Origin: a virus
IMG/VR virus record: IMGVR_UViG_3300027905_000001
Location: 1 to 64,000 of that record
Reading direction: 5' to 3' (one strand)
DNA length: 64,000 bases
The translations under genes and the position numbers were made by a program. The notes under the pieces were generated by a model. It did no database searches. It saw only the letters and a list, made by a program, of their open reading frames with translations, and was not told the origin of the DNA. Shown piece by piece: positions 8,457 through 25,382 of the stretch (within the stretch, counting starts at the first letter, position 1; the number at the start of each line of letters is the position of its first letter).

Positions 8457-9039
8457 AACGGCAATGCCTCAGTTCTACCGTCAATGGTTGATAGTCAGTA
8501 ATGTTCATGAGAGCTATTTTCATCTTAGTGTAGGATTCCGTCATGAAGGGCTGATTATCTGGATCATAACCAAAATTAGCCTTACAGTACGTTGAGATGG
8601 CCCGTCTGACTAGGGGATCGCCACTGTCGAGTACGTCTTGAGCAACCCCTGCTTTAACCAAATCCGCTTGAGCAGCATTGATAAGGTCCTGCACTTCTGG
8701 ATCAAATGAAGTATTCGATGGATCGAGCCTAAGATAAGGCTTAATGTCATTTAGCTGCGGTCCGGTGCCAACGGTAAAAATATTCGTCGCATATTGTGTT
8801 GTGCCACCATGTGTTATTTGCCATGATATTTGATACTGCGTGCCAGTTATCAGAGCAGAAACGTCATACTGATAAACGCCAGTCACATAATTTGCAACTG
8901 GCGTATTGACGGGAACAACAACAGCTCCCGTGGCGAGATTGATAACGCCATAGGAGCCGTCAGAAGAGGCGAGAATAACGCTTGTAGCGCTGGTTAACTC
9001 GCCTCTGTGGTTTGTGCAGTTAAGAGTTTGGAGTGCCAC
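8446..9039 (-). CDS. Head-tail connector (gp6-like) protein
   Basis: 197 aa; C-terminal STYCKANFGYDP region typical of gp6-like connectors. Confidence 0.55.
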   Translation of the reverse strand: MALQTLNCTNHRGELTSATSVILASSDGSYGVINLATGAVVVPVNTPVANYVTGVYQYDVSALITGTQYQISWQITHGGTTQYATNIFTVGTGPQLNDIKPYLRLDPSNTSFDPEVQDLINAAQADLVKAGVAQDVLDSGDPLVRRAISTYCKANFGYDPDNQPFMTESYTKMKIALMNITDYQPLTVELRHCRYEI

Positions 9040-9710: not shown

Positions 9711-11030
9711 TTAAGCGTGTGGAGTAGCCTCGACAAACGCCTCAGTCTGAGATACGCCGCCATCTCCCAATAACCAACCTTTATAGTAGACATCATTGGA
9801 GCCGAATCCCCATTCATACGATTTTTCAATCAAAACATCAGCAGACATATTGAAGTGGTAGAAGCTTAAGTCTCCAAAGAGAATCACGCCGTCAGCGATA
9901 TAAGGCGACATGATGACAGGATTACCGAGCAATCGTCCAACGATGGCCGTTTTCTGATAATCAACTTGCTCGCCGAGCGCGGTGCTTAACCCCCATTGTG
10001 GATTTTCAAGGAAGATCGGACGACCTACGGCATCCTTAATAGCGCATACGCCAGAGTAGAGGGTGTTACTGGACATTACCCAGAACGCGCCAGGATGATA
10101 AGGGGCCTTGAGTAAGGCTTTAGTGCCGGTGAATGTATCGTAGCTTAATCCTGCGATTCCTTGACCACTCTTGCCATATACATATTGGTTTTGACCTGAG
10201 CCAGCACCACCGGAACTAATCCAAGAAACTGCATTGAGGATACCCATAGGCTGCGAACTGGACTGACCAAGGCCGTTCAGTAACGCATTTTCGACAGCGA
10301 TCATGAGCTTTTTAAAGAGTTTGTCCACGATATACGCTTCAAAGGCATCGATGGAGAGTTGTTCAACTACGCGGGATACTTGAACCATTTTGATGAGGTC
10401 CCAAGCCATGAGAGAGAGATAACCCAAGGTATCAGTCCCTTGTGCTCCCGGAGCCATGACCATTGTTCCTTCTCCGGTCCATGCAGCATCCCCGAAAATG
10501 TTTTCAACGGCGATCTTGAGATTTCCCTTGACATTTGTTTTGCTAACAAAGGGATAAACAGCAGAAACGATGAGCATCTTTTGCACAACGAGGTCGAGGG
10601 TAATTTGCGGAATAGCTCCACCGGCGCTGGACGATCCAGAAGTGAAACGTAGCTCCTTAATATTACGATTGTTGCCAATGGCATTACCGGCATTGAGCAA
10701 GGAGCGTTCTTCGTCATTTAAGTCTTGAGCACCGTACTTGAGCATGCTGAAGAACGCATTGCGATACTCTTTAGTAGCACGAGTTTCGTACATTTTAGCT
10801 TCAGCAGTAGTAAGGCCACCGGCTGCACGGCTTTCGACGACAGGGATAACCGGAACTTGCTTGTTCTGGACTTTATTGCGAAGCTCAATCTTGGCAAGAA
10901 TGCCGCGTTTTTCTTCGCGTAAATCCTCTACCTCTTTGGAAACGACAGCCACATCCATTTCGGCACCTTGGTCGATTACTGCTCCGATTTCATCCATGCG
11001 GGCTTCGATTTCTTTAAGACGTTTTAACAT
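9711..11030 (-). CDS. Major capsid protein, HK97 fold
   Basis: 439 aa; N-terminal coiled-coil delta-like segment, then capsid-like core. Confidence 0.85.
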   Translation of the reverse strand: MLKRLKEIEARMDEIGAVIDQGAEMDVAVVSKEVEDLREEKRGILAKIELRNKVQNKQVPVIPVVESRAAGGLTTAEAKMYETRATKEYRNAFFSMLKYGAQDLNDEERSLLNAGNAIGNNRNIKELRFTSGSSSAGGAIPQITLDLVVQKMLIVSAVYPFVSKTNVKGNLKIAVENIFGDAAWTGEGTMVMAPGAQGTDTLGYLSLMAWDLIKMVQVSRVVEQLSIDAFEAYIVDKLFKKLMIAVENALLNGLGQSSSQPMGILNAVSWISSGGAGSGQNQYVYGKSGQGIAGLSYDTFTGTKALLKAPYHPGAFWVMSSNTLYSGVCAIKDAVGRPIFLENPQWGLSTALGEQVDYQKTAIVGRLLGNPVIMSPYIADGVILFGDLSFYHFNMSADVLIEKSYEWGFGSNDVYYKGWLLGDGGVSQTEAFVEATPHA

Positions 11031-11060: not shown

Positions 11061-11083
11061 AAACACCTTATTTCAAGGTGTTT
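11061..11083 (-). terminator. Hairpin with T-run between protease and capsid genes (possible partial terminator)
   Basis: AAACACCTT ... AAGGTGTTT stem followed by TTTTT on the minus strand. Confidence 0.35.
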
Positions 11084-11961
11084 TAGAGCATAGTTCTTAT
11101 CTTGAGAATTTGACGCTTACGCTGTTCTTCAGCTTTTGTTTGCAGGTCTTTGGTTTCCTGCTCCTTTTGAGCTAGTGCGCGAGCTTCTTCGTCAGCAAGA
11201 CGCTTGGCTTCTTTAGCCTTTGTTTCCATATCCTTACGGTGAAGCTCTTTGTGCCGTTGCTCTTGCTCACTTTTCAGACGGCTTCGAGCACTGACGCTGG
11301 TATCCTCGTATGCTGGGAAGTCAACCACGGATACGTCATAAATCTTGTCAAATTTATAGATAGTCCGTGTCTTGGTTTTTTCATCCCAGTTATCACTCTC
11401 GGTACTGAAAGCGAAGGACATTTTATCTAGATTGCCACTCCTGACAAGTTCGTGAATATCACTAGCTTGTGTCGTATTAGCAAGCCTAGCGACTACTCCC
11501 ATGCCTTTAGCGTCTACTGTAAGATCAAGCGAACCTCCTTTTGTGGAGGCTAAAGGCGGAACGTGCATGCTGTGATTGTATTTCAGGACCACATTAGACA
11601 GGTCAACGCCCTCAAGCGCATTATGGTCAATCCGTTCGTACCATTGATCGCCCCGCCAATCTATAAATAAAGGGGTTGTGGTATCAAACACGATAGGACG
11701 TCCCTCAAGTACCTTTTGCGCTGGTTGATCATCAGTGCCACCTAATAGGCTTGCCCGAACCTCTACGGCCCTGTATTCGATCTTATCCACCTTGGAGCGT
11801 TTACTGTCAACCTCGGGATCATCTTCTTCGGGATCATCATCAACCATGGGATTACCATCTTCATCCTGCACCATCGGATTACCATCATCGTCAAGAATTT
11901 GGTTTCCCTCATCGTCAAGTGCCAGGATACATTTTCCTTCGGAATCTAGTTTCTTTTTCAC
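11083..11961 (-). CDS. Prohead protease (HK97 family) with coiled-coil scaffold-like C-terminus
   Basis: 292 aa; MSFAFS and SVVDFPAYEDT motifs; N-terminal acidic repeats; K/E-rich C-terminus. Confidence 0.75.
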   Translation of the reverse strand: MKKKLDSEGKCILALDDEGNQILDDDGNPMVQDEDGNPMVDDDPEEDDPEVDSKRSKVDKIEYRAVEVRASLLGGTDDQPAQKVLEGRPIVFDTTTPLFIDWRGDQWYERIDHNALEGVDLSNVVLKYNHSMHVPPLASTKGGSLDLTVDAKGMGVVARLANTTQASDIHELVRSGNLDKMSFAFSTESDNWDEKTKTRTIYKFDKIYDVSVVDFPAYEDTSVSARSRLKSEQEQRHKELHRKDMETKAKEAKRLADEEARALAQKEQETKDLQTKAEEQRKRQILKIRTML

Positions 11962-12032: not shown

Positions 12033-13436
12033 TTATTCTTTAGCACCTTCGCCACCCCCGTTTTCATCTACAATAGGTTCTTTTGTTTTGCCATCATCGT
12101 TATTTGGTGCAGGAGGTTGCTTTGCTGTTTTTGACATATTAAGTTGGTAGTCGTTTTTGATATTCACATCCACGAAGTTTAGGGATTCTACTGTGCGTTC
12201 GCCGCCAACTTGAGGAGCATAACCAAACAATTCCCTGTACTCATTTATTGAGAAGATCCCCAACGGTCCTGCATATTGGAGAATTTGCGTTTTGGTCAAG
12301 TCGCTTGTGTGCTCAATACGGTTAGCTGTAAAAATAATCTTGTTTCCAAACCCTCTTTGCCTGTCAGTGAATACCTTATAGGTAAATGCTTCAGAATACT
12401 GTTTCAGGATTGGTGATATAACAGAGTTAAACACAGCGTTGAACTCAGATTCGTTGTATTCGGAGAAAACGAATTTTGCATTGACATTGTAGTACCCAAA
12501 TACTTGACGTTGTATGGCTTCCATCTGAGGTGCGTCCAGCAAGACCGCTTTACCGTCAATCGGCTTGAATTCCCCCATAGAATCGTCCGTGACAATAATC
12601 CCACCATTGTTGTTAATGTCAAAAAACTTACTTAATAACTCATTTGCCTTAGCCTTTAAATCCGAGACTTTTAGAACACCCGGGAATTTCAAGCTACCAC
12701 GAATATTTGCAGGGGCATTTTCAACTGCCTTAATAATGCCGTTGTGGACGGTATTAACCAACTCTGTGAGTGGGCGTATTGCTTGGTCGTTGTAGCTTCC
12801 CATGAGATCATTTTCGAAATAATCACGCTTGATATGGATAATCTGCTCATATGGAACTATGATTTCTTCCCCGCCTCGGAAGTTGAATTTGACGAATAAG
12901 TTTCCTGTTTCGTCGTCAGTTATGACTTCCTTCGATTCCATGTAGGTTACGAACGATGAATTGAGAGGGTAGAAACCTAACGTATTACCCATACTAGGGC
13001 CGGGGTTTTCGTCCTCCTTGAGGTATACCCAGCCGTTGTTATGGATAAGGAGGTTTGTCGTTAATTTAAAAAGGAACTCCGATGAGTTCATGTAAGGGTT
13101 GGGTTGGCCGCTCAGGAGGTTGGCTATGTTGCTATTCTGAGGGATTGTATCAGTAGCCGTGCTACCGTCTGCCCTTGTGCTGGTTACATATCGAATATGC
13201 TTCACGTCTGCCTTTGCTACATGCGTCGCTATGGCTCTTAGACACATGCGCATAAGGTAGTTGTAATAGATTGAGCCGTTGGTATTTGAGGCGACCGGGA
13301 GATACCCGTTGAGCGTTCTGAATTGACCGAATACTGGGGGGGATTGCTGTTGCTGGGGTTGGGTTTTCTTGGGGAACATGCCGGAGAACATGGAACGTAT
13401 TTCTTTGATCATTAGATGTGAACCACCTCCTTTCAT
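12033..13436 (-). CDS. Portal protein
   Basis: 467 aa, position between terminase large subunit and protease, portal-like composition. Confidence 0.8.
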   Translation of the reverse strand: MKGGGSHLMIKEIRSMFSGMFPKKTQPQQQQSPPVFGQFRTLNGYLPVASNTNGSIYYNYLMRMCLRAIATHVAKADVKHIRYVTSTRADGSTATDTIPQNSNIANLLSGQPNPYMNSSEFLFKLTTNLLIHNNGWVYLKEDENPGPSMGNTLGFYPLNSSFVTYMESKEVITDDETGNLFVKFNFRGGEEIIVPYEQIIHIKRDYFENDLMGSYNDQAIRPLTELVNTVHNGIIKAVENAPANIRGSLKFPGVLKVSDLKAKANELLSKFFDINNNGGIIVTDDSMGEFKPIDGKAVLLDAPQMEAIQRQVFGYYNVNAKFVFSEYNESEFNAVFNSVISPILKQYSEAFTYKVFTDRQRGFGNKIIFTANRIEHTSDLTKTQILQYAGPLGIFSINEYRELFGYAPQVGGERTVESLNFVDVNIKNDYQLNMSKTAKQPPAPNNDDGKTKEPIVDENGGGEGAKE

Positions 13437-13458
13437 GCATAGTCACGCTGGCTGTGAG

Positions 13459-13626
13459 CTAGTTACAAATTGGAGTTTTCTTTGAAGTTGGAACGCTAGT
13501 GATTTGCTGGCAAAGTAGAAGTATCGTTTTTGCTATATCGCAAGCAGCTTCGCCACTCACCTTACCTAATTCCTGAATTTTTTGAAGGTGCTCGATTTGT
13601 CCTTGAATGATTTTTACATAGTCCAT
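13459..13626 (-). CDS. Hypothetical small protein (55 aa) in the terL-portal gap
   Basis: ATG-started ORF MDYVKIIQGQIEHLQKIQELGK; RBS spacing suboptimal. Confidence 0.3.
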   Translation of the reverse strand: MDYVKIIQGQIEHLQKIQELGKVSGEAACDIAKTILLLCQQITSVPTSKKTPICN

Positions 13627-13685
13627 TATTATCTACCTACTTCCTTTTAATTTGGGCATAAAAAAATCACTCTATATGAGTGGTG

Positions 13686-15386
13686 TTAAATTAAACTGTC
13701 GAATATCTCTTTTTTCCTCAAGTAAACCGTATACGCATCCAGGAGACTAAGTGCCCCATCAATGAATCCTTTTGACTTGACCTTAACTGGGGTTATATTA
13801 GCGTTTCGGTCAGTTTCGACAGCTAAATTGCACAAGCAAAATTCGAGCATTGGGTTTTTATTGTAGTTAATTCTCTTCATTCCAAAGTCTGCACCCATGT
13901 CTTTCAACGGCCTATTTAACGTCTTCCCACCTTGAATAACCTTGGCATCCTCCTTGACCATCGCACTCCCAAAGCCCTCATTTTCCATTTCCTTAATCCA
14001 GTATTCGGAATTCCAAAAATCATATCCTATGGTTTGGATATACAAGTTATAATCATCACGCATATCCACGAACCAACTTGTTACATATGAATAATCAACT
14101 CTATTTCCCGGTGTCAGCGTGAGTAATCCGCGATCTATCCAAGCCTGATAAACAACTTGCTTGGCAGGTGGTGCGTTAATGAACGTTTCGGATGGCATCC
14201 AATACATTTGGTGGCAGAGGAATTTATTTTCTAGCCTCGGAAATAATAACGTCGCGCTCGTTAAGTCAGTCGTGCTACTAAGATCAACCCCTCCGACACA
14301 GTAAAGTCCTTTGATTTCTTCAAGCTCAAATGTTTCCTCATTCCGAATTGTACTGTATTCAAGGAACGCATTACTCAGCGTACCAATGACGTTAAAGTCT
14401 TTAGTCAAGACAGTATTCTTAAAAGTTCGGTCAACCGCCGCTTTCCTAACGTTTTCCCTCAGCGTTTTGACAACTTTAATAGTTCCAAGCCCAGGGTTCG
14501 CCTTTACCCAAACTGATTCATTCTTGAAATCGTCATCCTTGTCCAGTATATAAAGCAAAGGTAGAAAATGTTCGTCCTCGTAACCCTCTATCCCGTTTAT
14601 TACATTAACCGCATATTCGAACTGGAAGTCAAAGATACTCTCACGAATGAATCCGGCAGTCGTTATGCACCACATTAACGGTTGATCCCTAGTGCCGAAA
14701 GACTGTTTCATTACGTCATAGAGTTCTCTTGTACGCATTCCATGTAATTCGTCCATAAGACAAACGTGTGTATTCAATCCGTCTAGACTATTTCCATCAC
14801 TGGATAATGGCTCAAACTTACTAAATGTCGCGGGGAAGCTTAGGTCAGTTCGACGCTTTTTGATGTGCTTTTGAAGAGAGGTTGATTGCCTGACGATGTT
14901 CGTTGCTTCCGCAAAGATGATTTTTGACTGATCGAGCTTCGTGGCTACGCTGTAAACCTCACTGCCGCCTTCGCCATCCCCGACAAGCCCATACAATCCA
15001 AGCGCTGCCGCCAGACTACTCTTACCGTTCTTGCGACCAACTAGTAGTAATACTTCTGTATATTTCCTAAGACCTTCTGAATTAACAAACCCATAAACCA
15101 ATTGGAGCATTGCCTTTTCCCACAAATCCAGCACAAATGGCTTCCCTATCCACTTCCCTTTACTCTGCTTGCATAACGTTTCAACGAAGTCAATCGGCTT
15201 AGTGCCCTTCTTAATATCGAAGTGGTACTCGCCTGGATTGCTCAAGTCATCGACTATCTTTTCATAGGCTTTCTTAACATAAATACATGCTACTATTTCG
15301 CCTGATTGGATTTTATCGTTGTATTCTGTGATGTAGTTAACAAAAGGCTCACTGAGCGTAGCGTTGGAGGAATTCGAGCAAGTCAT
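13686..15386 (-). CDS. terL: Terminase large subunit (likely start at ATG 15386; track start 15410)
   Basis: Walker A GRKNGKS, Walker B-like LMDELH, C-terminal nuclease-like region; GGGGAGG RBS before MTCSNSS. Confidence 0.9.
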   Translation of the reverse strand: MTCSNSSNATLSEPFVNYITEYNDKIQSGEIVACIYVKKAYEKIVDDLSNPGEYHFDIKKGTKPIDFVETLCKQSKGKWIGKPFVLDLWEKAMLQLVYGFVNSEGLRKYTEVLLLVGRKNGKSSLAAALGLYGLVGDGEGGSEVYSVATKLDQSKIIFAEATNIVRQSTSLQKHIKKRRTDLSFPATFSKFEPLSSDGNSLDGLNTHVCLMDELHGMRTRELYDVMKQSFGTRDQPLMWCITTAGFIRESIFDFQFEYAVNVINGIEGYEDEHFLPLLYILDKDDDFKNESVWVKANPGLGTIKVVKTLRENVRKAAVDRTFKNTVLTKDFNVIGTLSNAFLEYSTIRNEETFELEEIKGLYCVGGVDLSSTTDLTSATLLFPRLENKFLCHQMYWMPSETFINAPPAKQVVYQAWIDRGLLTLTPGNRVDYSYVTSWFVDMRDDYNLYIQTIGYDFWNSEYWIKEMENEGFGSAMVKEDAKVIQGGKTLNRPLKDMGADFGMKRINYNKNPMLEFCLCNLAVETDRNANITPVKVKSKGFIDGALSLLDAYTVYLRKKEIFDSLI

Positions 15387-15645
15387 CTTTAGTTTCCTCC
15401 CCTTTCGCATCAGGTAACATCTTAAGTAGCTTATCCACTAAATTAGCATAAGCCCTAGTCCCGGAGTAGTACATGGTCACGTCTTTAGCCTTTGCTGTGC
15501 CGCCGTTTATTTTGGCACTAAGCTTTTTGATGATAATGTTTATGTCTGCCATTTGAGCTATGAAGTCGCGGGCTATGTTGCGTTGTTCAGGTTGGATTAG
15601 GGATAGGAGATCGTCGAGGGGGTTGAGTTCGATTGTTGGTTCCAT
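15349..15645 (-). CDS. Hypothetical protein (98 aa) overlapping terL start
   Basis: ORF with 3' end overlapping terL by about 38 nt; no motif recognised. Confidence 0.45.
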   Translation of the reverse strand: MEPTIELNPLDDLLSLIQPEQRNIARDFIAQMADINIIIKKLSAKINGGTAKAKDVTMYYSGTRAYANLVDKLLKMLPDAKGEETKDDLLEFLQRYAQ

Positions 15646-16011
15646 ATTTTAGCCTCCGTATAAAACCAAAAAAGGCGGCTACCAACACATTCCGTTATGG
15701 AGTGCATTGATAACCGCCTTTTGCAGGTAGGTTATGTTATTAAATTAAATGTTGATTTGAATTTGCACCACGCAGGAGCCTTGGTCATTAACCCTAATTC
15801 GCTAATAACTCTGGCCTTACCGCTCTCTCCCACTTTGCCTATCATGGCATCACTGAAGCTTTCATACGTGGTTGATGCCCATATAATCGTCCTGCCTCTT
15901 TTGCTTTCGAAAAAACACTTAGCGCGCCACGTTTTGCGATCGTCCTCTGAGATTGTGTTATACTCACAACCAATACAACTCAAATATCATCATCCTCTCG
16001 TTTTCGAGTCG

Positions 16012-16146
16012 TTAAATCTTCTCCTTAACAGTCGTCTCTACCGTCTTAACTTTTCCGTCATGACAGACAATCTTGACTTCTCCATAGTCGGGGAGTGTGA
16101 TCGTTTTATCCTTGCCGTCGTGGGATAGTGTGATTTTGTTTTGCAT
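16012..16146 (-). CDS. Hypothetical small protein (44 aa), translationally coupled (TAATG)
   Basis: MQNKITLSHDGKDKTITLPDYGEVKIVCHDGKVKTVETTVKEKI; GGAGGT RBS; ATG overlaps upstream stop. Confidence 0.45.
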   Translation of the reverse strand: MQNKITLSHDGKDKTITLPDYGEVKIVCHDGKVKTVETTVKEKI

Positions 16147-17018
16147 TAGTTACCTCCGTTGGGTGATTTCCACAAGTCTCGTTCACGGCACAAAGGACAT
16201 CTACTCAAGCCGTTATCTTCTTTGCTCTTGCAATTATAGCAGGTTATTGGTCGCCATCTGCTGTATTTAAAGCACCTCAACCCATCGCAACTTTCGCCGA
16301 TTGCTTCGGCACAATTCTGACATGACTTTTCTTTTACTTTTATTTCGATTGGCTCCCATTTATTGAGATTGGTACATTTGTAATATTGTCGGCAACACCC
16401 CTCCTCAACATTTCTGCAAGTGGTACAGCCCTTCGCTTGTTTCTCTTCACTGGGCTCACTGCTTGCCCCCATTTTAATTAGTGCTTGTCCGAGTTCGAGG
16501 GCTTCTTGTGGGGTTAATTTTTGATTAAGCACGTAGTACGTGCCATGCATCTGAACACGAACGCTGTCAATGCACCCACGGTCAACCTTCAGTGTCATAT
16601 CATCTTTAGTTATCTCGACATTTTCTATCTCGCCATCCTCATCATTGGCATTGTAGATGGCGTTTATTTGTTCCATGCACTCATTAAAGGTAATAGCTCC
16701 ACTATAAAGAAATGCCAGCCATTTAGACGCTTGTCCTTCTTTATCCACTGGCTTATATGTAATTTTAACGTTGGACATTTTGGGTTCCTCCTCTAACTTC
16801 TTTATTGCTAACTTAAGTTCTTCGAGTACGATTTCAATTCCGTCAAGTGGGTGATGTTTATCGAAAACATGATAACAACCGTCTGGAAGTCTTTTGTATC
16901 TATTTGCCTTTTTCCGCTTTTCGCTCAAGACTTTTATTAACTTCTCTATTCCGAAGCAAATACAGGTTAGAGACGTGATCGTTATTATGCAAAATGCCAA
17001 GGTTAGCATTAGTTGCAA
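16146..17018 (-). CDS. Membrane-anchored Cys-rich protein
   Basis: 290 aa; N-terminal hydrophobic helix; C-terminal third with many CxxC pairs. Confidence 0.5.
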   Translation of the reverse strand: MQLMLTLAFCIITITSLTCICFGIEKLIKVLSEKRKKANRYKRLPDGCYHVFDKHHPLDGIEIVLEELKLAIKKLEEEPKMSNVKITYKPVDKEGQASKWLAFLYSGAITFNECMEQINAIYNANDEDGEIENVEITKDDMTLKVDRGCIDSVRVQMHGTYYVLNQKLTPQEALELGQALIKMGASSEPSEEKQAKGCTTCRNVEEGCCRQYYKCTNLNKWEPIEIKVKEKSCQNCAEAIGESCDGLRCFKYSRWRPITCYNCKSKEDNGLSRCPLCRERDLWKSPNGGN

Positions 17019-17341
17019 CCCTCCGATTCCTGCACTATCTCTACTCGCTTATCACAAATAGGACAGTGAATAGTCGGTCTGCCAACAAGCTTCCTGCTTA
17101 TGTAAAGTTCAATCTTGCCACACCTTGGGCAGTCGCCGTATGTCATAATTCTAGGGTTTTTGACGCTTCCGTGGCCTACAGTTGGGATTAGTTGGCCTTC
17201 GTTTTTAGCTTTACACTTCTCCTTAGATCTATTTATGAAAATTATCATTGCCCACGAAAAGGCAACGCAAGATGCCATAAGAAGTATCCACGCAATCTCA
17301 AGAAAGAAGTTTGCTATCTGCTGGTTCATGCCGCACCTCAC
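17009..17341 (-). CDS. Small membrane protein with C-terminal zinc ribbon
   Basis: 110 aa; transmembrane segment IAWILLMASCVAFSWAMIIFI; CPRCG...CPICD. Confidence 0.5.
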   Translation of the reverse strand: MRCGMNQQIANFFLEIAWILLMASCVAFSWAMIIFINRSKEKCKAKNEGQLIPTVGHGSVKNPRIMTYGDCPRCGKIELYISRKLVGRPTIHCPICDKRVEIVQESEGCN

Positions 17342-17859
17342 TTCGACTTCAATAACCTAAACTTCTGTTTCGCATATTCAGGGATGAAATTATCTAAATC
17401 CTTTTGAAACAATAGGTAGAGATTGAGTGACAATCTATTCGACGAAAAGAAGTAGATCGGATTGAAGTACCATTGAGTGATTACATCATCACCAATCTTT
17501 ACCTCGATCTTAGCCATAATTCTTTTCTTAACCATCCTATTAAGGAATAAAACAGTATGTCTTTCGGTATCTCGGATTACGTTTGCCATTTGCGGTATGT
17601 CCATTGCCTTTATGCCACCATTGCCACGGTAGCCGATCATATTAGTTGTCGAGTAAACTTTCTTACTTAACAAAAACAGATTAGCTATATCAGACTTGGT
17701 TATTTCGTTTGGCAATTCTACATCCTGAAACGTTTTGACGAAACTGCTTTTATTCCAAAAGAGATAACCTTTTTCTTCGTCGAACATATCTTTGAAGTAT
17801 GTCTTCTTTGTGCTCACAACGTTACCATGGTCATCTGTTATTTCGGTCGCCCTTATCAT
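17338..17859 (-). CDS. Hypothetical protein (possible winged-helix DNA-binding protein)
   Basis: 173 aa ORF coupled to downstream gene; weak resemblance to RepL-like winged-helix proteins. Confidence 0.4.
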   Translation of the reverse strand: MIRATEITDDHGNVVSTKKTYFKDMFDEEKGYLFWNKSSFVKTFQDVELPNEITKSDIANLFLLSKKVYSTTNMIGYRGNGGIKAMDIPQMANVIRDTERHTVLFLNRMVKKRIMAKIEVKIGDDVITQWYFNPIYFFSSNRLSLNLYLLFQKDLDNFIPEYAKQKFRLLKSK

Positions 17860-18020
17860 CGAATCACCTCTAAAATCGTGGGTACATTTAAGGCGTTCTA
17901 TGTACCTGTAAAATTTGACTACCTAAAATGCTGAAACCCTTGGTATAAGCGACTTTAAGGGTTCTGGATTAAGTAAATCATGCAAACTCACATATATTAT
18001 ATACGTGTGAATCTGCATGA

Positions 18021-18329
18021 TTAGAGTTGTTTTGCGTCTACCTTCTCCACCCAAACTATATCCCCATTAGCATCGAACTTCAGCTCATCATCATGCCTAG
18101 CTCTAGTTTGTTCGTGGCACTTCCTGCATAGGAGTTCGAGGTTATTCCAGCTATAGCACTTCTCAGGGTTGTTAACGGTGTCCCATGCTGTTATAGGGTC
18201 CTTGTGGTGGACTTCTTCGCCTTTGGATCCGCATTGCTCACAGAGACCGAACTTAGAGGCAAAGAAAGCTTTGCGGCATTTGATCCAGGCGCTTCGTCCG
18301 TAGAATAGTTTGAGTTGGCCTTGACTCAT
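18021..18329 (-). CDS. HNH endonuclease (terminase-associated type)
   Basis: 102 aa; CEQCG...VHHKDP...LELLCRKCHEQ (HNH with zinc-binding Cys pairs). Confidence 0.85.
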   Translation of the reverse strand: MSQGQLKLFYGRSAWIKCRKAFFASKFGLCEQCGSKGEEVHHKDPITAWDTVNNPEKCYSWNNLELLCRKCHEQTRARHDDELKFDANGDIVWVEKVDAKQL

Positions 18330-18871
18330 TGGGTATCGTTTGCGATATCAACCGCATAGGGGAGTATCATTACCTTTAAGTTGGGGCATTGGGATTGTAG
18401 ATCGTTGCGCAGCCTTTCTATATCGTCACAACGTAGTAATGCACCAAGTTTCAGGACTAATGTATCGCTATTCATGATAGTAGCGGTGCTAATGATATAA
18501 TTAGTCTGAAAACTCATCTTTTTGTTAATCTCTTCAAGCATCGATTTCACATCTCGCTCAGAGTATTCCTTTTCTCTACGCCATGTTACGGTTATTGCGT
18601 CGTTGCTTTCTTGTACTTGGACATTATAAGTTGGTGTAGATTCCGCAAGGCCAAGTAAGTCAAATCGGTTTGAGTAGCCCCTGTATATCATACTTCTAGT
18701 CATAAAGTCGTTCTCAACGGCTACGACAAGAACATCCCTAAGTACCTCAACTACTCCTTCTGGATTAGATTGCAAAAGGTCTTGGCTTATAGAGAATGTT
18801 CCTCTTCTGTCGAGCAGGACGCTTTCTTTGCGCTTGTTTTGGCAGAAAACGTTTTTACCTAAGTTACCCAT
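18326..18871 (-). CDS. Hypothetical protein (likely start at ATG 18871; track start 18919)
   Basis: ORF with GGAGTGAGG RBS before internal MGNLGKN; no motif recognised. Confidence 0.5.
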   Translation of the reverse strand: MGNLGKNVFCQNKRKESVLLDRRGTFSISQDLLQSNPEGVVEVLRDVLVVAVENDFMTRSMIYRGYSNRFDLLGLAESTPTYNVQVQESNDAITVTWRREKEYSERDVKSMLEEINKKMSFQTNYIISTATIMNSDTLVLKLGALLRCDDIERLRNDLQSQCPNLKVMILPYAVDIANDTQ

Positions 18872-19047
18872 TTTCCTCACTCCTTCTTGTTCGGTTAGGT
18901 CATCGTCTCTAGTGTTCATGCAATTACCACCTTTTACCTATACTTACGAGAACATAAAATTACTTACCAAGTTTTTGCCGAATTTCTGGGGTGAAATCAA
19001 AAAACACCACTCAGTATCACGAGCCTTTGGTACACGGCAGATGGTTT

Positions 19048-19099
19048 AACCCCCTGGTATAGGGGTTGGGGGGTGCCTTTATCCCCTCTTTTATACCAG
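19048..19099. repeat. G/C-rich nested inverted repeats downstream of terS (possible packaging-site or structured element)
   Basis: AACCCC(19048-19053)/GGGGTT(19062-19067) hairpin nested within CTGGTATA(19054-19061)/TATACCAG(19092-19099). Confidence 0.35.
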
Positions 19100-19230
19100 T
19101 TTTCGACATAGTTGGGGCATCAATCCGGCATTTAACAACTTCCAGCGCTTGGTTAGCGCATCCGGCTGGCTATTCACCGCCTAAGTTATTCTTAGCCTCA
19201 CATCTCACCCCTGCCTCAGAAGTCTCCTGC

Positions 19231-20130
19231 CTAGATACTATCCTCAGCAGCCTTGCGCCGGATCTCTAAGTCAGCCTCATTAACTGCGGTCCTGCGCTCT
19301 GCAAGTTTAAGATTAGCGTCATCAACTTTGCGCCGATGCTGATCCGGAGTGAGGTCAAAGAAGTCCGCCAGCCGGTCAAGTGCCTTATGCTTGTCGTGGA
19401 ACTTAATAGAGATACCATCCTTAGTCTGCCGAATCTCCTGCACCATCGAAGTGTCCACCTGGTCGCTGTTTTTGATCCTAACGAAGTTGACATCCTGCAC
19501 CTGGTACTGACCGTCCGGGCCGACTACGCGCTGGCCGTCGAGATATACCCAATCCTGAGTGGTCCCGAACTCAAAGAAGTCTCCAGGATCGGACATTGCT
19601 ATTTTTTCGTAGACCTCCAGTACATCGCGCTTGGTAAGAAAGATGTCCTGAGCTATATCACCTTTCAGCCGCCGGATCTCTGCCGCAACCTTAACGTCTC
19701 TTAACATCCGGCTGCCCTGGACATGTGCGCCGGCCTTTGGACACCCTGCTTTTATTGCGGCCATCGTTGCGTTGTGATCCTTGACAAAGTGTAGCGCGAA
19801 TAGCTGCTGCTTTTCTGTGAGCGGCGAACTCTCTACTATATAATGCGTCTCGCTCCCGGCTGCTTCTTCCGGCCGTTTCTTTCCCTGGTCCGTTGCCGCT
19901 TTCTTCCGGCCGGACTTCTTGTCCGTTGCAACGCTCTTCTTTTGCGTTGCATTGCGTTGCTTGCCTTGCGTTGCGTTCTGCGTTGCATCGTTGGCCGCTT
20001 CTGCTTTGGCCCAGTTCTCTCTGTTCTTCCGGCTGCGGATCGTGCCCGCGCTGATTCCGTGTTTTGCTGCAAGGTCCCGAAGCGTAATCTCTGTCGTCTC
20101 GTATTCTGCGCGTATTACTAGCCAATCCAT
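19231..20130 (-). CDS. terS: Terminase small subunit
   Basis: N-terminal HTH (ITLRDLAAKHGIS), low-complexity basic linker, conserved LTEKQQLFALHFV...NATMAAIKAG core. Confidence 0.8.
   Translation of the reverse strand: MDWLVIRAEYETTEITLRDLAAKHGISAGTIRSRKNRENWAKAEAANDATQNATQGKQRNATQKKSVATDKKSGRKKAATDQGKKRPEEAAGSETHYIVESSPLTEKQQLFALHFVKDHNATMAAIKAGCPKAGAHVQGSRMLRDVKVAAEIRRLKGDIAQDIFLTKRDVLEVYEKIAMSDPGDFFEFGTTQDWVYLDGQRVVGPDGQYQVQDVNFVRIKNSDQVDTSMVQEIRQTKDGISIKFHDKHKALDRLADFFDLTPDQHRRKVDDANLKLAERRTAVNEADLEIRRKAAEDSI
19928..19994. repeat. Tandem imperfect TTGCGTTGC repeats inside terS (coding for NATQ-type repeats)
   Basis: About seven overlapping copies of GCGTTGC/TTGCG between 19928 and 19994. 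Confidence 0.5.
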
Positions 20131-20173
20131 TTACATTTTCACAACCCTCCCTACATGTTTGCTACTATATATC

Positions 20174-20202
20174 TTGCATATGTCTTGACACCATGATATA
20201 AT
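20174..20202 (+). promoter_or_regulatory. Sigma-A-type promoter for the plus-strand island (TTGCAT-17-TATAAT), overlapping TTGACACCATGATATAA motif
   Basis: -35 TTGCAT 20174-20179, -10 TATAAT 20197-20202; shared motif also present at 21448. Confidence 0.5.
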
Positions 20203-20236
20203 AAGTTAAGATCTAATTTTGAAGGAGGTAAACGGC

Positions 20237-20632
20237 ATGACAAAGCTCGAAATTGCTAAAAACATTAATGCCATCAAGGATTTAGGCCGCATTATTGCAA
20301 CGAATTGGGAGATGGACTTTGTTGAAGGAGGAATCTATGACAATAAGGGCAATGTCGAAAGCTGGACTGACCGTGATAATTCAAAAGTGGCCTTTAAGCC
20401 CGAAAGCACCGGCACGATAACTTATGTCCTTCAATGCAATAAAGTCCCCTGTCACGTAGTAGACTACACTAGCACTGATGAAACTCGCGCCCTTGGCGCT
20501 ACTGGCTGTGAAGATGAAGCTGAATGCCTGGTATTACCTGAAACAAAAATGATAATTACCTACGTTTCCACTGAAGATGATTTCAACGAAATGGGATATT
20601 ACTTAGTGGAAATGGAGATTGTCAATGAGTAA
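20237..20632 (+). CDS. Hypothetical protein (131 aa)
   Basis: GAAGGAGG RBS 8 nt before ATG 20237; no motif recognised. Confidence 0.6.
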   Translation: MTKLEIAKNINAIKDLGRIIATNWEMDFVEGGIYDNKGNVESWTDRDNSKVAFKPESTGTITYVLQCNKVPCHVVDYTSTDETRALGATGCEDEAECLVLPETKMIITYVSTEDDFNEMGYYLVEMEIVNE

Positions 20633-21230
20633 TCGCCATGGACACCCCCTTACTTCTGAACAAAAGGGAGCGAGGGAGATTGAATATCGGAAAATGGCAT
20701 TGGAATTTCATAAAGAAACAGGACGTTCGCCCCGGATGGCAGACTTACCTTTTCCTTATAAAATCTTTAAGGTTCACGACACGTGGAATGCATTTCTTGA
20801 AGATTGCGGGCTAGAGGTTAACCGTTTAACCACGGACGTTGAGAAATATTCTTTAATATTCGATTACAAGGAATTAGCTAAAAACTTAGAACGGACTCCT
20901 TACGCATTAGAATTTTATAAAAAATTTGGTTGCCAATACGCAGTCCGCAAATTATTTGGATCATGGAATGCATTTGTTAAAGCTTGTGATCTTAAATTAA
21001 ATAGATTCACAGGAGCAGAAAAAGAAGAACTTGTGGAACGCGTCTTGAAATTAGCTAAGAAATTAGGTAAAACACCTACAACTCGTGAATTTAATGCACA
21101 CGCAAAGAAAAGTAATCTATGCACGACGATGGTTATATGTCGGTATTTCGGAACATGGACGGAATGCCTTGAGTTTTGCGGGTTAGAGCCTAACCAAAAT
21201 AAAAATTTTAAGCGTAGAAAGAAGGATTAG
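20619..21230 (+). CDS. Protein with three tandem ~55-aa repeats (tentatively homing-endonuclease-associated HTH-like repeat)
   Basis: Repeats ending WNAFLEDCGLE / WNAFVKACDLK / WTECLEFCGLE. Confidence 0.55.
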   Translation: MSMSNRHGHPLTSEQKGAREIEYRKMALEFHKETGRSPRMADLPFPYKIFKVHDTWNAFLEDCGLEVNRLTTDVEKYSLIFDYKELAKNLERTPYALEFYKKFGCQYAVRKLFGSWNAFVKACDLKLNRFTGAEKEELVERVLKLAKKLGKTPTTREFNAHAKKSNLCTTMVICRYFGTWTECLEFCGLEPNQNKNFKRRKKD

Positions 21231-21232
21231 CG

Positions 21233-21397
21233 ATGGCAGAAACAACAACCGACGACCGCGAACGCATGACACTACGCATCCCCCAGGACATTTGGCGCAT
21301 GATCAAAATGGACCTGATTGACAAAAAAGAAAAGTCGGCCAATGAGCTTATCACAAACTTAATATATGAGCACTACAAAGTACCCCGGCCGCAATAG
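21233..21397 (+). CDS. Ribbon-helix-helix (CopG/Arc-like) DNA-binding protein, 54 aa
   Basis: Not in ORF track (under 60 aa); MAETTTDDRERMTLRIPQDIWRMIKMDLIDKK...; GAAGGA RBS; start overlaps upstream stop. Confidence 0.55.
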   Translation: MAETTTDDRERMTLRIPQDIWRMIKMDLIDKKEKSANELITNLIYEHYKVPRPQ

Positions 21398-21447
21398 CTG
21401 GGGGTTTTCTTTACCTAAAAATACTTAATATTTATTGTCTTAATGCC

Positions 21448-21476
21448 TTGACACCACGACATAAAAGATGTATTAT
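21448..21476 (+). promoter_or_regulatory. Sigma-A-type promoter (TTGACA-17-TATTAT) with long GC-rich leader
   Basis: -35 TTGACA 21448-21453, -10 TATTAT 21471-21476; shares CTTGACACCAYGAYATAA with the 20185 region. Confidence 0.55.
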
Positions 21477-21648
21477 TAACACATGGAAAACAGCACTCCA
21501 GCCCAATCCAGTGCAACAAACGCTTCCCCCGGCCAATTGCGGTCCGGGTCCGCCAAGAAGCCGAGAGAGAAAAGTTGACCGTGTGTCAGGGAAGAAGATT
21601 AATCCCGACAGGCTACAAAGGGAGCCGGGGAAAAAGGAGTTTTAAATT

Positions 21649-21858
21649 ATGAAACAAACTTATTACAGCGTTGGTTATTACTCAGGAAGATCGAACAGCA
21701 CTAGCACGGCGTTTTTTGATACTAAAGAGGCGGCTGAAAAATTTGCAGATCATGATTACAGGGATAACGTGGTAGCGCATCACGTGAGCAAGCCTGAGAC
21801 GATTGCGAAATACGATGAGCTAGTTGCTATGACGGCGTTTGAGCTTAGAGACCGTTAG
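21649..21858 (+). CDS. Hypothetical protein (69 aa)
   Basis: AAAAAGGAG RBS then ATG; no motif. Confidence 0.55.
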   Translation: MKQTYYSVGYYSGRSNSTSTAFFDTKEAAEKFADHDYRDNVVAHHVSKPETIAKYDELVAMTAFELRDR

Positions 21859-21971
21859 GATTTGCAGATGGCACCGGCCAGCACCCGGTGTAATGCACTA
21901 GCAGGCGTCCAAAGTCGCCGCAAATGCATCCCGACAGCTCGCAAGGAACGGGGAAAAGGAGGTCAGGACAG

Positions 21972-22418
21972 ATGCTCTATCACAGATTTACTAACTCATC
22001 AAACGTAATGTCCAACTGGGGTCACGCAATGTTTGCGGCCAACAGGGACGCGGTCGAAAATTACGGTAGTAAAGAGTTTATCTTTAAATCATCTAGGGAC
22101 AATAGCAAAACGATCAAGTCGCTCAAATCACTGATTATCAAAACTTGGAAGTACGATCAAAAAAATGGCTTTACCGGGGACTTTGGCAACGGCTGCACAG
22201 ATGATTACTACTACAACGTCAAGGATAATGCAGTGGACGCTATTAGTATTTACAACAGCTTTGACCCGTCTAGCGTTGTGGAGAGCGCCGATGCTTGGGA
22301 CTCCGAGCTTTATCAATGGTTTTGGGAGCGTATCGCGGAGCCTAACGGCATTATGGCAGTTACAACTCAAGATGGGGCAATAGTATTTGATGCAGACTTA
22401 ATTAAGGAGGTATGTTAA
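21972..22418 (+). CDS. Hypothetical protein (148 aa; track start 21924)
   Basis: GGAAAAGGAGG RBS before ATG 21972. Confidence 0.55.
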   Translation: MLYHRFTNSSNVMSNWGHAMFAANRDAVENYGSKEFIFKSSRDNSKTIKSLKSLIIKTWKYDQKNGFTGDFGNGCTDDYYYNVKDNAVDAISIYNSFDPSSVVESADAWDSELYQWFWERIAEPNGIMAVTTQDGAIVFDADLIKEVC

Positions 22419-22679
22419 ATGTCTAATGAGGATGACGTTATGTTTTTCAAAATAGCAAAGGTTAAAGCCGCTATCAGCAGGGTCCTAGACGGGTGCGTAA
22501 ACGAGTTGCCGGATATCCAGTTTGGATGGAGCGGATCAGTTATCGAGGTTTATTTATCCGGCGGTAATTATCAAGTCCGCAACCTTATCGAGTCCCATTT
22601 TGTAAATAGCAGGAGGTATAAAGGCGTTACAATTACAAACAACGACACCAAAAAGCGTATCAGCTTTATTTTAAATTAA
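22419..22679 (+). CDS. Hypothetical protein (86 aa)
   Basis: AAGGAGG RBS, start abuts upstream stop. Confidence 0.55.
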   Translation: MSNEDDVMFFKIAKVKAAISRVLDGCVNELPDIQFGWSGSVIEVYLSGGNYQVRNLIESHFVNSRRYKGVTITNNDTKKRISFILN

Positions 22680-22700
22680 GAAATTGAAGGAGTGTTAAAA

Positions 22701-22919
22701 ATGAAACGATTAGACATTTTTAAAAGCGAAGGTGGATACAGATTAGCATTGGGAATCTACAACGACAGCCCCGTAATTGACAAGTCTCCTTGGTTCGAAA
22801 CCAAGGAAGAGGCCGAAAAAGCAAGGCGCGAAGTCATAGAAGAAGATGAGCGAGAAGCCAAAATTGAGCAGTATATCCAAGATGGCAATATCGAGGCCCT
22901 CGAAAACATGGATAAGTAA
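22701..22919 (+). CDS. Hypothetical protein (72 aa; track start 22692 GTG)
   Basis: GAAGGAG RBS before ATG 22701; acidic C-terminus. Confidence 0.5.
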   Translation: MKRLDIFKSEGGYRLALGIYNDSPVIDKSPWFETKEEAEKARREVIEEDEREAKIEQYIQDGNIEALENMDK

Positions 22920-23013
22920 TTGCAGAGGATTAGGAGCCTAAAAACTCCTAATAATGCGCTAGGCAAGCGGTTCCAAGCCCGCGCCAATCGCAATTTTGAA
23001 AGGTGGAGCAATC

Positions 23014-23250
23014 ATGAAATACACCATAGCTGAATACCACGGCATAGACCGGCACCAAATGCAAGCCCATACCGAGGAAATCATTACCAAGCTTGAATTT
23101 ATTCGAACAACATGCACGGATGCCGAATCGCTCGAATACACTGACGCCCAACTCGAATTTTACCGCGAAGAACTAGCCAGTAAATCCCTGCTTATGTCAT
23201 CATGGTGGGAAGTTGAGAACTACATGCGGAAAGGTAGGAAAATAGCATGA
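23014..23250 (+). CDS. Hypothetical protein (78 aa)
   Basis: AGGTGGAG RBS before ATG 23014. Confidence 0.5.
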   Translation: MKYTIAEYHGIDRHQMQAHTEEIITKLEFIRTTCTDAESLEYTDAQLEFYREELASKSLLMSSWWEVENYMRKGRKIA

Positions 23251-23438
23251 CCATCTACATCCATGAGTTTTACAAGGACAAGGAAAAGGCGCTCGCATTG
23301 GCTGAACTACCGGACGAACTAGATTATCACCGATTTGTCCACGGCTGTGAGCCTAAAAAGGTGAACATAGTCCCTTATTGGGCAGATTGCGACAAGTACA
23401 AGGCGAATAAGTCCACCATGACACTGTTTATTAGCTAA
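23247..23438 (+). CDS. Hypothetical protein (63 aa)
   Basis: Start overlaps upstream stop (ATGA). Confidence 0.45.
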   Translation: MTIYIHEFYKDKEKALALAELPDELDYHRFVHGCEPKKVNIVPYWADCDKYKANKSTMTLFIS

Positions 23439-23518
23439 CATCAAGGCTTTTAGCCTTGGCTCAGCCGCTTTTTGAGCGGTTCAGCGAGGACTAAAAACGA
23501 ATGAAAGAGGTAATTTAC

Positions 23519-24439
23519 ATGAGCATGATCAACGAACAACTAGCCCAACGATCAAAGGAAAACATGAGTTTTTCCGACTACAAACCCGGCAGCGCAACGG
23601 CTGAATTCAACCAGGAAATAGCCAACGTCACCACGTTAGTTGAATCGGCCAAGCTCAGGGTATCCGACGAAGGGAAAGCCAAGCTAGATCGTTTCCTAGC
23701 CTCTTACACCTCTCGTTATGCCGCATGGACCAATAAGCGCAACGCAAATGGTGCAGGACATGTTAGTGTTATGATCGCAGGCCCAGCTAACTACAACATG
23801 AGAGCGCACGAAAAGTACATGAGCCGTGAAGGTAATCTCTGGAAAGAATACGAGGAATTCCGAAACCCTGAGTATAAAATTTCCTCCATCGTCGCAGGTG
23901 ACAGAGTTATAAAATCCAATGATGTCAACGCTATTGAAAAATTGCAGGAGAAAATAGACGGACTTGAAAAAATGCAGGAATTAATGAAAGCTTGTAACGC
24001 CATCATCCGTAAAAAGAAGCTGACCGACGAAGAGAAGATTGCTGCAATGGTAGAAGCTGGAGCCAGCGAAAAAGCCGCAAAAGAAACCTTGACCCCTAAT
24101 TTTATGGGCAGAATAGGTTTTGCCTCTTATTCGCTCAGTAATAACAACGCAACGATCCGAAACGCCAAGCAACGAATATCCCAGCTTGAGAAGATCGCTG
24201 CACGCGGCACGCAAGAGACTGTCATAGAATCAGACGCGGAGGAAACAAACGGCATACGCATAGTTGACAATGTTGAAGCGCATCGGCTGCAAATATTCTT
24301 TAATGGCAAGCCATCGGCAGAAGTTCGAACACAGTTAAAGAAAAATGGATTTAGGTGGACGCCTAGTATTTCCGCGTGGCAGTCGTATCGAAGTGAGAGC
24401 GCAAACCGGGCAGCGCGTGAAATAGTGGCAGCAATGTAA
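23519..24439 (+). CDS. Hypothetical protein (306 aa) with conserved-looking C-terminal RLQIFFNGKPS...GFRWTPSISAWQSY module
   Basis: AAAGAGG RBS before ATG 23519; C-terminal motif resembles small domains seen in phage/conjugative-element proteins (tentative). Confidence 0.5.
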   Translation: MSMINEQLAQRSKENMSFSDYKPGSATAEFNQEIANVTTLVESAKLRVSDEGKAKLDRFLASYTSRYAAWTNKRNANGAGHVSVMIAGPANYNMRAHEKYMSREGNLWKEYEEFRNPEYKISSIVAGDRVIKSNDVNAIEKLQEKIDGLEKMQELMKACNAIIRKKKLTDEEKIAAMVEAGASEKAAKETLTPNFMGRIGFASYSLSNNNATIRNAKQRISQLEKIAARGTQETVIESDAEETNGIRIVDNVEAHRLQIFFNGKPSAEVRTQLKKNGFRWTPSISAWQSYRSESANRAAREIVAAM

Positions 24440-24523
24440 TTATATCGCGGGACCATCTTTGGCCCTGCTCCAAATGTCCGATTATGGGCACTTGGAGGAG
24501 AATCAAAATTTAGAGGTGATCAA

Positions 24524-24712
24524 GTGGCGGAAACGTGGTTCTCTCGACTTAAAACAGAGATAGAAGATTCGAGAGACTTGCAAGAAATTCTTGGTGTTAA
24601 AGTTATCGAGCATCTTTTGTGGAACAATATCTCTCGCGAACAATACGAAACTCTCTCTAGCCTGCGCGTAAAAAGAATCCTGGAAAATTGGCACGAAGAA
24701 TTTTTGGCTTAA
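24524..24712 (+). CDS. Hypothetical protein (62 aa)
   Basis: Short ORF with GGAGGAG upstream. Confidence 0.4.
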   Translation: MAETWFSRLKTEIEDSRDLQEILGVKVIEHLLWNNISREQYETLSSLRVKRILENWHEEFLA

Positions 24713-24767
24713 ATCCACGCCGGACTATTCCGGTTTTTTCCCAACTAAAATTAAGGAGGAATAACTT

Positions 24768-25382
24768 ATGTTTCATGCGTTCACGCTCGAACAAGCGAAC
24801 CTCAGAGAGGTCCAAGGTTGGAAGGTCGGCCAACATGTCCAAGTCAAAGAATGGCGTGGTACTTACGAAATCGAAGGCTACCACCAATACGGAAGGCAAA
24901 ACGAGTACACCACTGTATACCTTGCCAAGCTCAAGAAAGACGGTACTAAGAGCAAATACAGCGGCGATACACCTATCGCTAACCTCATGCCATTGGGAGC
25001 GGCACAACCAACAACAGACAGCGCAGGACGAACAGCACTGCAGGCGGCACAGGAGCTATTCGGTAGCGGCTTTGCTAAACACGGATGGTATAACACGGAT
25101 CGCGAATCACTGGTAAAGGTTGAGACGATCAGTAAGACAGGACGCGTCAAGGTGCAAGATATAAGCGTCAAGGCTGGAATTACGGCACGTTCAAAGACTG
25201 TAGATGGACATAAAGTTTACAGTCAAGAAGATCGCCTGGTAAACTTTGCGGATCTCGAATACGGTCTAAGTGGAGATATAAAAACATTCACGCCGCGCCT
25301 TTTTTGGGGTGAATGGGGCTTTTGGCATGATGGGGAAATTATCAAGGCCCCAGATATGAAGCTTACGTGGTTGCTAGATTAA
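24768..25382 (+). CDS. Hypothetical protein (204 aa)
   Basis: AAGGAGG RBS; last gene of the island, followed by terminator. Confidence 0.55.
   Translation: MFHAFTLEQANLREVQGWKVGQHVQVKEWRGTYEIEGYHQYGRQNEYTTVYLAKLKKDGTKSKYSGDTPIANLMPLGAAQPTTDSAGRTALQAAQELFGSGFAKHGWYNTDRESLVKVETISKTGRVKVQDISVKAGITARSKTVDGHKVYSQEDRLVNFADLEYGLSGDIKTFTPRLFWGEWGFWHDGEIIKAPDMKLTWLLD

Follow-up and report, generated by a model that had tools for sequence, protein, structure and literature searches.

Small terminase subunits decide which DNA a phage packages, and hence which DNA it transduces. In the linear genomes of the cohesive-end (cos) phages B13, iA2 and phiCD481-1, the first genes are a small open reading frame (ORF) and terL, the gene for the large terminase subunit (TerL), and the last is an HNH endonuclease gene. 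The B13 cos was predicted with PhageTerm and is backed by restriction analysis (PMC9610010), and the B13 small ORF (gp1, annotated as terS, the gene for a small terminase subunit, TerS) begins 62 nucleotides (nt) past the cohesive end. The locus considered here lies in a viral stretch of 64,000 nt, positions 1 to 64,000 of IMG/VR record IMGVR_UViG_3300027905_000001 (the window), in which a preliminary description placed an accessory cluster (15387-19230) between a terS and a terL some 4 kb apart. On balance, we read this interval as internal to a mosaic packaging operon that has been stretched, and not as cargo that splits the subunits of one terminase. The extra material between terL and the gene taken for terS, which encodes a Terminase_2 protein, is certainly present, and all of the ORFs and overlaps first listed exist on the minus strand. 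What had been missed is a probable small subunit encoded beside terL, along with three non-coding stretches (18920-19230, 17860-18020 and 15646-15731) that are conserved and/or strongly structured.

The backbone of the operon is readily recognized. TerL (13686-15386 or 13686-15410, minus strand; 566 or 574 amino acids, aa) matches PF03354 and PF20441 (ATPase and nuclease; 115 and 113 bits) as well as phrog_9 (E 5e-140), and by these matches is classed as HK97/B13-type. It is 65-67% identical to TerL of the viral contigs L006, L009 and L010, its closest relatives, and 43-45% identical to that of the cos phages phiCD481-1, HM T, B13 and iA2. Downstream lie an HK97-type portal protein (12033-13436, minus strand; phrog_12), then a prohead protease (11083-11961; phrog_80) and a major capsid protein (9711-11030; phrog_10). 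The 102-aa HNH protein (18021-18329, minus strand) matches PF01844 (E 1.7e-7) and phrog_144/119, and is 59-60% identical to the HNH proteins encoded directly before the small subunit and terL in the same three contigs, where HNH, a small ORF of 111-126 aa and terL are contiguous. These resemblances mark it as terminase-associated, as had been proposed. The backbone order in the window (Holliday junction resolvase, 30707-31219; transcriptional regulator, 26704-27276; and further on HNH, small subunit and TerL) agrees with that of B13 and iA2. The real anomaly of the locus is that five ORFs, occupying 2.4 kb, part HNH from the small subunit.

That small subunit is represented by a 98-aa ORF, p98 (15349-15645, minus strand), which overlaps the start of terL. 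In all of the relatives examined (HM T, CBP1, Athena, iA2, phiCD481-1 and B13) a helical protein of 110-129 aa likewise overlaps the beginning of terL. For HM T, CBP1 and Athena this protein matches phrog_1066 at E 1e-43, and p98 does so at E 1.1e-6, while a profile made from seven terL-adjacent small proteins matches p98 alone among the 659 ORFs of the window (E 2.7e-8). Sub-threshold matches to PF05119 (Terminase_4, the P27-type TerS) occur in 5 of 13 members of the small-subunit family, the best at E 0.0016. We infer that p98 is a divergent P27-like small terminase subunit and the partner of TerL; together with the contiguous gene order in relatives, the family matches to p98 suggest that HNH, p98 and TerL form the backbone module. 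The 86-nt spacer before p98 (15646-15731) folds at -37.3 kcal/mol (z -6.7), and its main feature is a terminator-like hairpin (15661-15722, minus strand) directly upstream of the p98 ribosome-binding site (RBS), a stem of about 22 bp and then a U-run (UUUUUUGGUUUU). Smaller hairpin and T-run elements occupy the equivalent position in L006 and L009.

The Terminase_2 gene (19231-20130, minus strand) encodes a small terminase of a different type. Its 299-aa product scores 118.1 bits against PF03592 (Terminase_2; cutoff 26.1) and matches phrog_2606 (E 4e-75); it is SPP1/PBSX-type, with an extra N-terminal helix-turn-helix (HTH). The gene is a compositional outlier (GC 53.4%, GC at third codon positions 60.7%, against 37-48% in its neighbours); it is intact, and the family alignment is conserved along its full length. 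Relatives below 45% identity have a PBSX-type terL directly next, and the 34-41% identical homologues in cultured phages overlap such a terL, which is followed by an SPP1-type portal. The closest public homologues (48-59% identity) have an HNH or p197 homologue next, and never terL directly. A fusion of HNH and P-loop domains, 228 aa long, comes next in L018-20, L022, L023 and L025-27; in L021 a 340-nt spacer and a 70-aa ORF precede a homologue of p197. A scan of viral contigs for close Terminase_2 relatives found none. In the window the next gene is p197, past 311 nt of non-coding DNA, and terL lies 3.8 kb off and is not of the usual partner family.

There is good precedent for such an arrangement. 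The order Terminase_2, HNH (with or without the P-loop), zero to three ORFs, a phrog_1066-like small ORF and an HK97-type terL is found in L059, from Candidatus Dichloromethanomonas, where Terminase_2, HNH, small ORF and terL are contiguous, in L083, from Bacillus sp. OV166, and in two partly degraded loci of Chengkuizengella axinellae (L041 and L045). Judged by this arrangement, repeated in at least four other Bacillota genomes, the Terminase_2 gene is a recurrent second small-terminase-type gene, and its product is probably functional. The idea that it is an orphan relic of a module swap was down-weighted, since the gene recurs elsewhere together with HNH, the small subunit and an HK97-type terL. 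As separate observations, the 228-aa fusion, with its P-loop motif GPPxxGK, is conserved directly after Terminase_2 in L018, L023, L025-27, L045, L059 and L083; in L018 the next ORF has a CxxxCxxC radical-SAM-like motif; and its homologue in the Butyrivibrio phages Bo-Finn and Arian is labelled "small terminase subunit". L009 also carries, upstream of its own intact short HNH, a truncated piece of an L018-type HNH/P-loop gene (3365-3526), which suggests a past swap of one HNH type for another.

Between the Terminase_2 gene and p197 is the longest of the non-coding stretches (18920-19230, minus strand), 311 nt with a C6...G5 motif and a conserved block of about 85 nt. It is 75% identical overall to the L021 spacer, and the block of about 85 nt at its end is about 90% identical and nearly invariant, even though the proteins flanking the shared spacer are only 56-58% identical. 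Its C-run/G-run motif is the only one of the region and resembles cos-proximal sequences of B13, phiCD481-1 and HM T. This combination of conservation and motif marks out 18920-19230 as a candidate for a late promoter, a cos region or both. The p197 ORF itself (18326-18919, minus strand) encodes 197 aa, or, probably, 181 aa from a start at Met17 (18871). Its product is 58% identical to a 165-aa L021 protein, encoded downstream of a 56%-identical TerS, which suggests that the p197 gene was inherited together with the Terminase_2 gene. The N-terminal module of p197 (residues ~34-135) matches 130 representative clusters of proteins of about 85-110 aa and the C-terminal module also exists as a stand-alone protein; p197 thus looks like a fusion of two small-protein modules. 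A Pfam scan of 46 family members, a PDB profile search and PADLOC yielded nothing on its function, and tblastn against cultured phages gave no match.

The 173-aa protein, p173 (17338-17859, minus strand), had been suspected to contain a winged helix, and the structure model bears this out; p173 is accordingly modelled as a winged-helix DNA-binding protein of the winged HTH fold. Its family (phrog_31110) is uniform at about 175 aa, and spans at least 127 clusters at 36-79% identity; p173 had no tblastn match in cultured phages. It has an N-terminal beta-rich extension and the conserved motifs NMxGYRGNGG and YFFSSNR, which to our knowledge are described nowhere else. The context of 61 distinct family genes was examined in viral contigs with few TerL and TerS seeds, so that the following counts are lower bounds. 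A TerL-like ORF lies within 2.5 kb downstream in 36 of the 53 cases with sufficient flank, and in 16 of those 36 it is within 300 nt of the homologue or overlaps it. A TerS-like ORF lies within 2 kb upstream in 25 of 38 cases with upstream flank (median gap 600 nt), and just downstream in four more. These neighbours come from no fewer than three families each of TerS and TerL. Because members of the family often overlap terL, a role for p173 as a canonical TerS was considered, but it is unlikely; the model has none of the long oligomerisation helices that known TerS proteins have, and most loci have a TerS-type gene besides.

Two side observations concern the same family. In L131/L150 two p173 paralogues, 30% identical (5836-6468 and 7980-8546), flank a P22-gp3-type terS, and a homologue of the p197 N-terminal module sits between the second paralogue and terL. 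The int-alpA small RNA (RF02996) occurs in two p173-bearing contigs (L159, 3526-3593; L149, 1077-1143), away from the terminase region.

Upstream of p173 is a structured leader (17860-18020, minus strand) with three hairpins: a long one at the 5' end, one in the middle and a terminator-like one that abuts the RBS. Its minimum free energy is -46.6 kcal/mol (z -5.0), and conserved counterparts occur in L126, L129 and L133, among other loci. Across nine close relatives two hairpins are 91.8% paired, where slid controls reach 22-51%; compensatory changes affect six of the pairs, with several G-U pairs besides. Of 52 distinct family members, 58% have an inverted repeat 12-25 nt ahead of the start codon, a feature seen in 5% of shuffles; the arms of this repeat vary from lineage to lineage. 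In 44 of the 52, the sense strand gives a better fold than the antisense strand (p 1e-5). An RNA leader is a better reading than a palindromic operator. Neither the window leader nor those of 11 related loci had a match to Rfam at the gathering score.

Taken together, these comparisons suggest the following model. The backbone would be an HK97/B13-type cos module of HNH, small subunit, TerL, portal, protease and capsid, in which, if HK97 and B13 are a guide, p98 would bring TerL and HNH to cos. The Terminase_2 protein would be a second small-terminase-type DNA-binding protein, encoded upstream of HNH in some modules of this kind. Three kinds of material would then have been added: the p197 gene and the conserved non-coding region, inherited with Terminase_2; the leader and p173 cassette; and four lineage-specific genes, p110, p290, p44 and p83, ending at the strong terminator-like hairpin before p98. 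The cassette most likely binds DNA or its own leader, and in doing so would control or assist the terL-proximal operon.

The preliminary description had seen no evident packaging role in the interval except for HNH, and on this point it fares less well. p98 is the sole match in the window to the terL-adjacent small-subunit family that includes the B13 terS product; the p173 family recurs, across dozens of phage contigs, in the space from a terS-type gene to terL; and the gene for the 181/197-aa protein travels with the Terminase_2 gene. Homology to packaging accessories located between terS and terL was found for three of the nine ORFs (HNH, p98 and p173). The picture of a terS and a terL parted by cargo with no packaging function would consequently hold for the 110-, 290-, 44- and 83-aa products and not for these three. 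The profile and structure searches proposed at that time were productive for the 173-aa protein, with its winged helix, and gave no assignable function for the 181/197-, 290- and 110-aa proteins.

Several points weigh against the model. p98 itself has no Pfam match, PF05119 included; it is only 24-27% identical to the small proteins of L006, L009 and L010, with that of L009 at 27%, and has an internal deletion, at a divergence far from that of the HNH (59-60%) and TerL (65-67%) of the same relatives. A PDB profile search with the small-subunit family returned chance-level matches only and no solved TerS, and the equation of phrog_1066 with TerS draws on position, the B13 annotation and a weak likeness to Terminase_4. 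p98 could be in decay, its task taken on by the Terminase_2 protein. With the terminator-like hairpin directly before it, p98 has no room for a promoter, and expression of p98 and terL would need read-through. The B13 cohesive-end sequence has no match in the packaging region of the window, and the cos-like C/G-run motif sits upstream of p197 and HNH, not beside p98. For p173, the link to terminase genes is one of position, as read from gene order, and a DNA palindrome in place of an RNA hairpin would explain part of the covariation of the arms.

Some of these points are better accommodated if the Terminase_2 protein is the only working TerS, p98 is a decaying relic or an adaptor of a P27-like ancestor, and terS and terL are truly 4 kb apart. 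The anomalous divergence and shortening of p98 would then be expected, and the intact, fully conserved Terminase_2 gene has promoter-like sites upstream and, just downstream, both the cos-like C/G-run motif and the highly conserved non-coding block. That said, all genomes with Terminase_2, HNH and an HK97-type terL keep the small ORF overlapping terL. In L083, moreover, a stretch some 55 nt upstream of the small ORF matches the B13 cohesive end but for one insertion; it is more than 1 kb away from Terminase_2, on the downstream side, so that the B13-like cos adjoins the small ORF and not Terminase_2. Close TerL relatives and cultured cos phages also package without a Terminase_2 gene. We consider a sole Terminase_2 TerS unlikely, and retain p98 as the probable partner of TerL.

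The four remaining genes of the interval can be regarded as cargo. p110 (17009-17341, minus strand; 110 aa) has a hydrophobic window at residues 8-38, K/R-rich sequence after it, and a C-terminal CxxC...CxxC zinc-ribbon-like domain; it contains 8 Cys, and its zinc-ribbon matches (YacG, Lar and Elf1 among them) are all sub-threshold. p290 (16146-17018, minus strand; 290 aa, TTG start) begins with a membrane anchor and ends in three Cys4 modules, with a conserved middle domain at residues ~78-185; it has 19 Cys in all, and 8 K/R among the 15 residues past the transmembrane segment. Because K/R-rich sequence follows the single N-terminal hydrophobic segment in each, the Cys-rich parts of both proteins are predicted to be cytoplasmic. 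Among 5.8 billion proteins p290 has 3 partial homologues, all limited to the middle domain, and an AlphaFold2 model from the 4-sequence alignment gave no confident fold (predicted local distance difference test score 41). In p290 and these three homologues the conserved domain begins at an internal 'EE-x-K-M-SNVKITYKPVDK', around residue 79-81, and RBS-like codons upstream of that site make a second, soluble product from an internal start possible. p44 (16012-16146, minus strand; 44 aa) is weakly XtrA-like (PF17356, PBSX_XtrA, 29.0 bits against a cutoff of 29.7; phrog_1551, E 1.7e-10), and p83 (15732-15983, minus strand; 83 aa, TTG start) has 4 Cys in a CxxC...C...C pattern. Some genes of the interval overlap, with an ATGA overlap between HNH and p197, a 4-nt overlap between p173 and p110, and TAATG between p290 and p44; the hairpin at 15661-15722 separates the cargo genes from p98 and terL.

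The first account of the 110- and 290-aa pair, as membrane-anchored, Cys-rich proteins unlike holins or known exclusion proteins, stands. No holin family matched, no endolysin lies near the pair, and p290 is too large and consists mostly of soluble Cys-rich domains. PADLOC, PHROG, Pfam and NCBIfam gave no defence or exclusion match for p110, p290, p173, p197, p44 or p83, with the limit that exclusion proteins are poorly covered, and PADLOC found nothing in the accessory ORFs or in the neighbouring plus-strand island. A profile of the small Cys family that neighbours terS and terL did not match p290, p110 or p83, and a relationship of the p290 Cys modules to that family was rejected.

One might go further and treat the whole block as a moron or accessory island, an insert unrelated to packaging in which the membrane Cys-rich pair would serve exclusion or toxicity. 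Indeed, p110, p290 and p83 have no homologue among about 190 related loci, and p44 has no relative in any related locus either. In B13 (gp53), L083, L041 and L045 too, unrelated ORFs have been added between HNH and the small subunit, a slot that thus behaves as tolerant of insertions, and p110 and p290 each have a single N-terminal anchor, as in many exclusion proteins. The ties of HNH, p98, p173 and probably p197 to terminase genes elsewhere are nonetheless hard to reconcile with such an island, as is the lack of any database match to a defence, holin or exclusion function. The genes of the block are, besides, co-oriented and translationally coupled with the late operon, where a moron would be separately oriented with its own promoter. 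An island of this kind seems to us less probable still than a sole Terminase_2 TerS; within a mosaic packaging operon, p110, p290, p44 and p83 are best described as lineage-specific cargo. Finally, that the leader and p173 form a selfish or mobile unit targeting terminase regions, like free-standing homing-endonuclease genes, with no part in packaging or regulation of the phage itself, would suit the occurrence of the cassette, its leader conserved and its proteins 75-79% identical, beside at least three unrelated TerL and TerS families, and the two paralogues in L131, but it is quite improbable given that the invariant columns of the family hold no conserved acidic or histidine catalytic residues, that there is no nuclease fold, and that a very uniform gene length and position, often with translational overlap of terL, suggest a gene integrated in the operon.

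A more ambitious version of the mosaic operon can be offered only tentatively. In a broad range of environmental Bacillota-type phages, packaging modules may hold parts additional to the textbook TerS and TerL, with or without HNH: p173 and its leader may act as a third factor for packaging specificity or for control of the late operon, whatever the terminase type, alongside a split between two small terminases in which DNA recognition and the recruitment of TerL and HNH would be divided between the Terminase_2 protein and the P27-like subunit. As far as we found, the dual small-terminase arrangement and the p173-leader family are both undescribed in the literature searched.

The interval belongs to a prophage. 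The 290-, 299- and 173-aa products have 100% identical counterparts in Candidatus Desulfosporosinus infrequens, and the window holds one complete Desulfosporosinus prophage, including tail genes, a tape measure gene among its structural genes, and a serine integrase (53348-54826). Early genes on the minus strand encode methyltransferases, RecT-like and SbcC-like proteins and a replication initiator, and the early region has a second, unrelated HNH endonuclease (32217-32735, minus strand; phrog_99, E 5e-34). Positions 13000-21500 gave no megablast match among 50,697 phage records.

The minus-strand phage operons are broken by a plus-strand island (20219-25382), divergent from and upstream of the Terminase_2 gene. 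It encodes a 203-aa protein with three homing-endonuclease-associated repeats (PF18780) and no nuclease domain, and contains two Type-P5 twister ribozymes (21863-21919 and 22921-22982, plus strand; 39.7 and 44.1 bits, above the Rfam gathering score). The island looks like an insertion, since the small Cys-rich genes that flank it (25897-26260, minus strand) directly abut the Terminase_2 gene in L021-L023. Those genes are two tandem copies, upstream of the island, of a 55-70 aa family with the motif C-x(n)-C-x2-C-x6-7-C, which recurs in many phage contigs adjoining terS or between a p173 homologue and terL (L021, L022, L023, L127, L129, L142, L148 and L162).

The membrane and Cys-rich cargo genes are of local interest only. 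The terminase genes raise a wider point. Small terminases are routinely named from gene position or from one Pfam match, a practice that can settle on the wrong gene, or on one of two. If the recurrence of the arrangement reflects a division of labour, then Terminase_2, HNH, a P27-like subunit and TerL would represent a novel design for a cos terminase. With at least 127 clusters, tied to several terminase types, the p173 family and its leader are a target in the search for a new packaging regulator or specificity factor.

Of the systems already described, the HK97-type HNH/cos modules (HK97 gp74, gp1 and gp2; Bacillus phage B13; Staphylococcus phages of the phi12/phiSLT type) come closest. 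They share with the window a Terminase_1-type TerL with an overlapping small helical subunit, a short HNH just upstream, and portal, protease and capsid downstream. Unlike those modules, the window has its HNH and small subunit 2.4 kb apart with five ORFs between, an extra Terminase_2 gene upstream, an unusually divergent small subunit and no B13-like cos. The Terminase_2 protein, for its part, resembles the SPP1 G1P/PBSX XtmA-type small terminases, with full-length similarity and 34-41% identity to the annotated terS products of phi4J1, D6E, PVJ1 and phiCT19406A, and with the same extra N-terminal HTH and Terminase_2 domain. In those phages, however, the gene overlaps a terL of PBSX/Terminase_3/6 type and is accompanied by an SPP1-type portal, and the window has no such terL.

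The p173 protein differs from the winged-helix binders known from phages, such as the lambda gpO N-terminal domain, replisome organisers and MarR/ArsR-like regulators, in that it belongs to none of their sequence families and sits in the terminase region instead of a replication module. The presence of two small-terminase-type proteins with one TerL recalls the TerS of Staphylococcus aureus pathogenicity islands, the Rpp of phage-inducible chromosomal islands and the cos-redirecting factors. Unlike the case of these satellites, there is no hint of hijacking here, and both small-terminase genes reside in one operon of one prophage.

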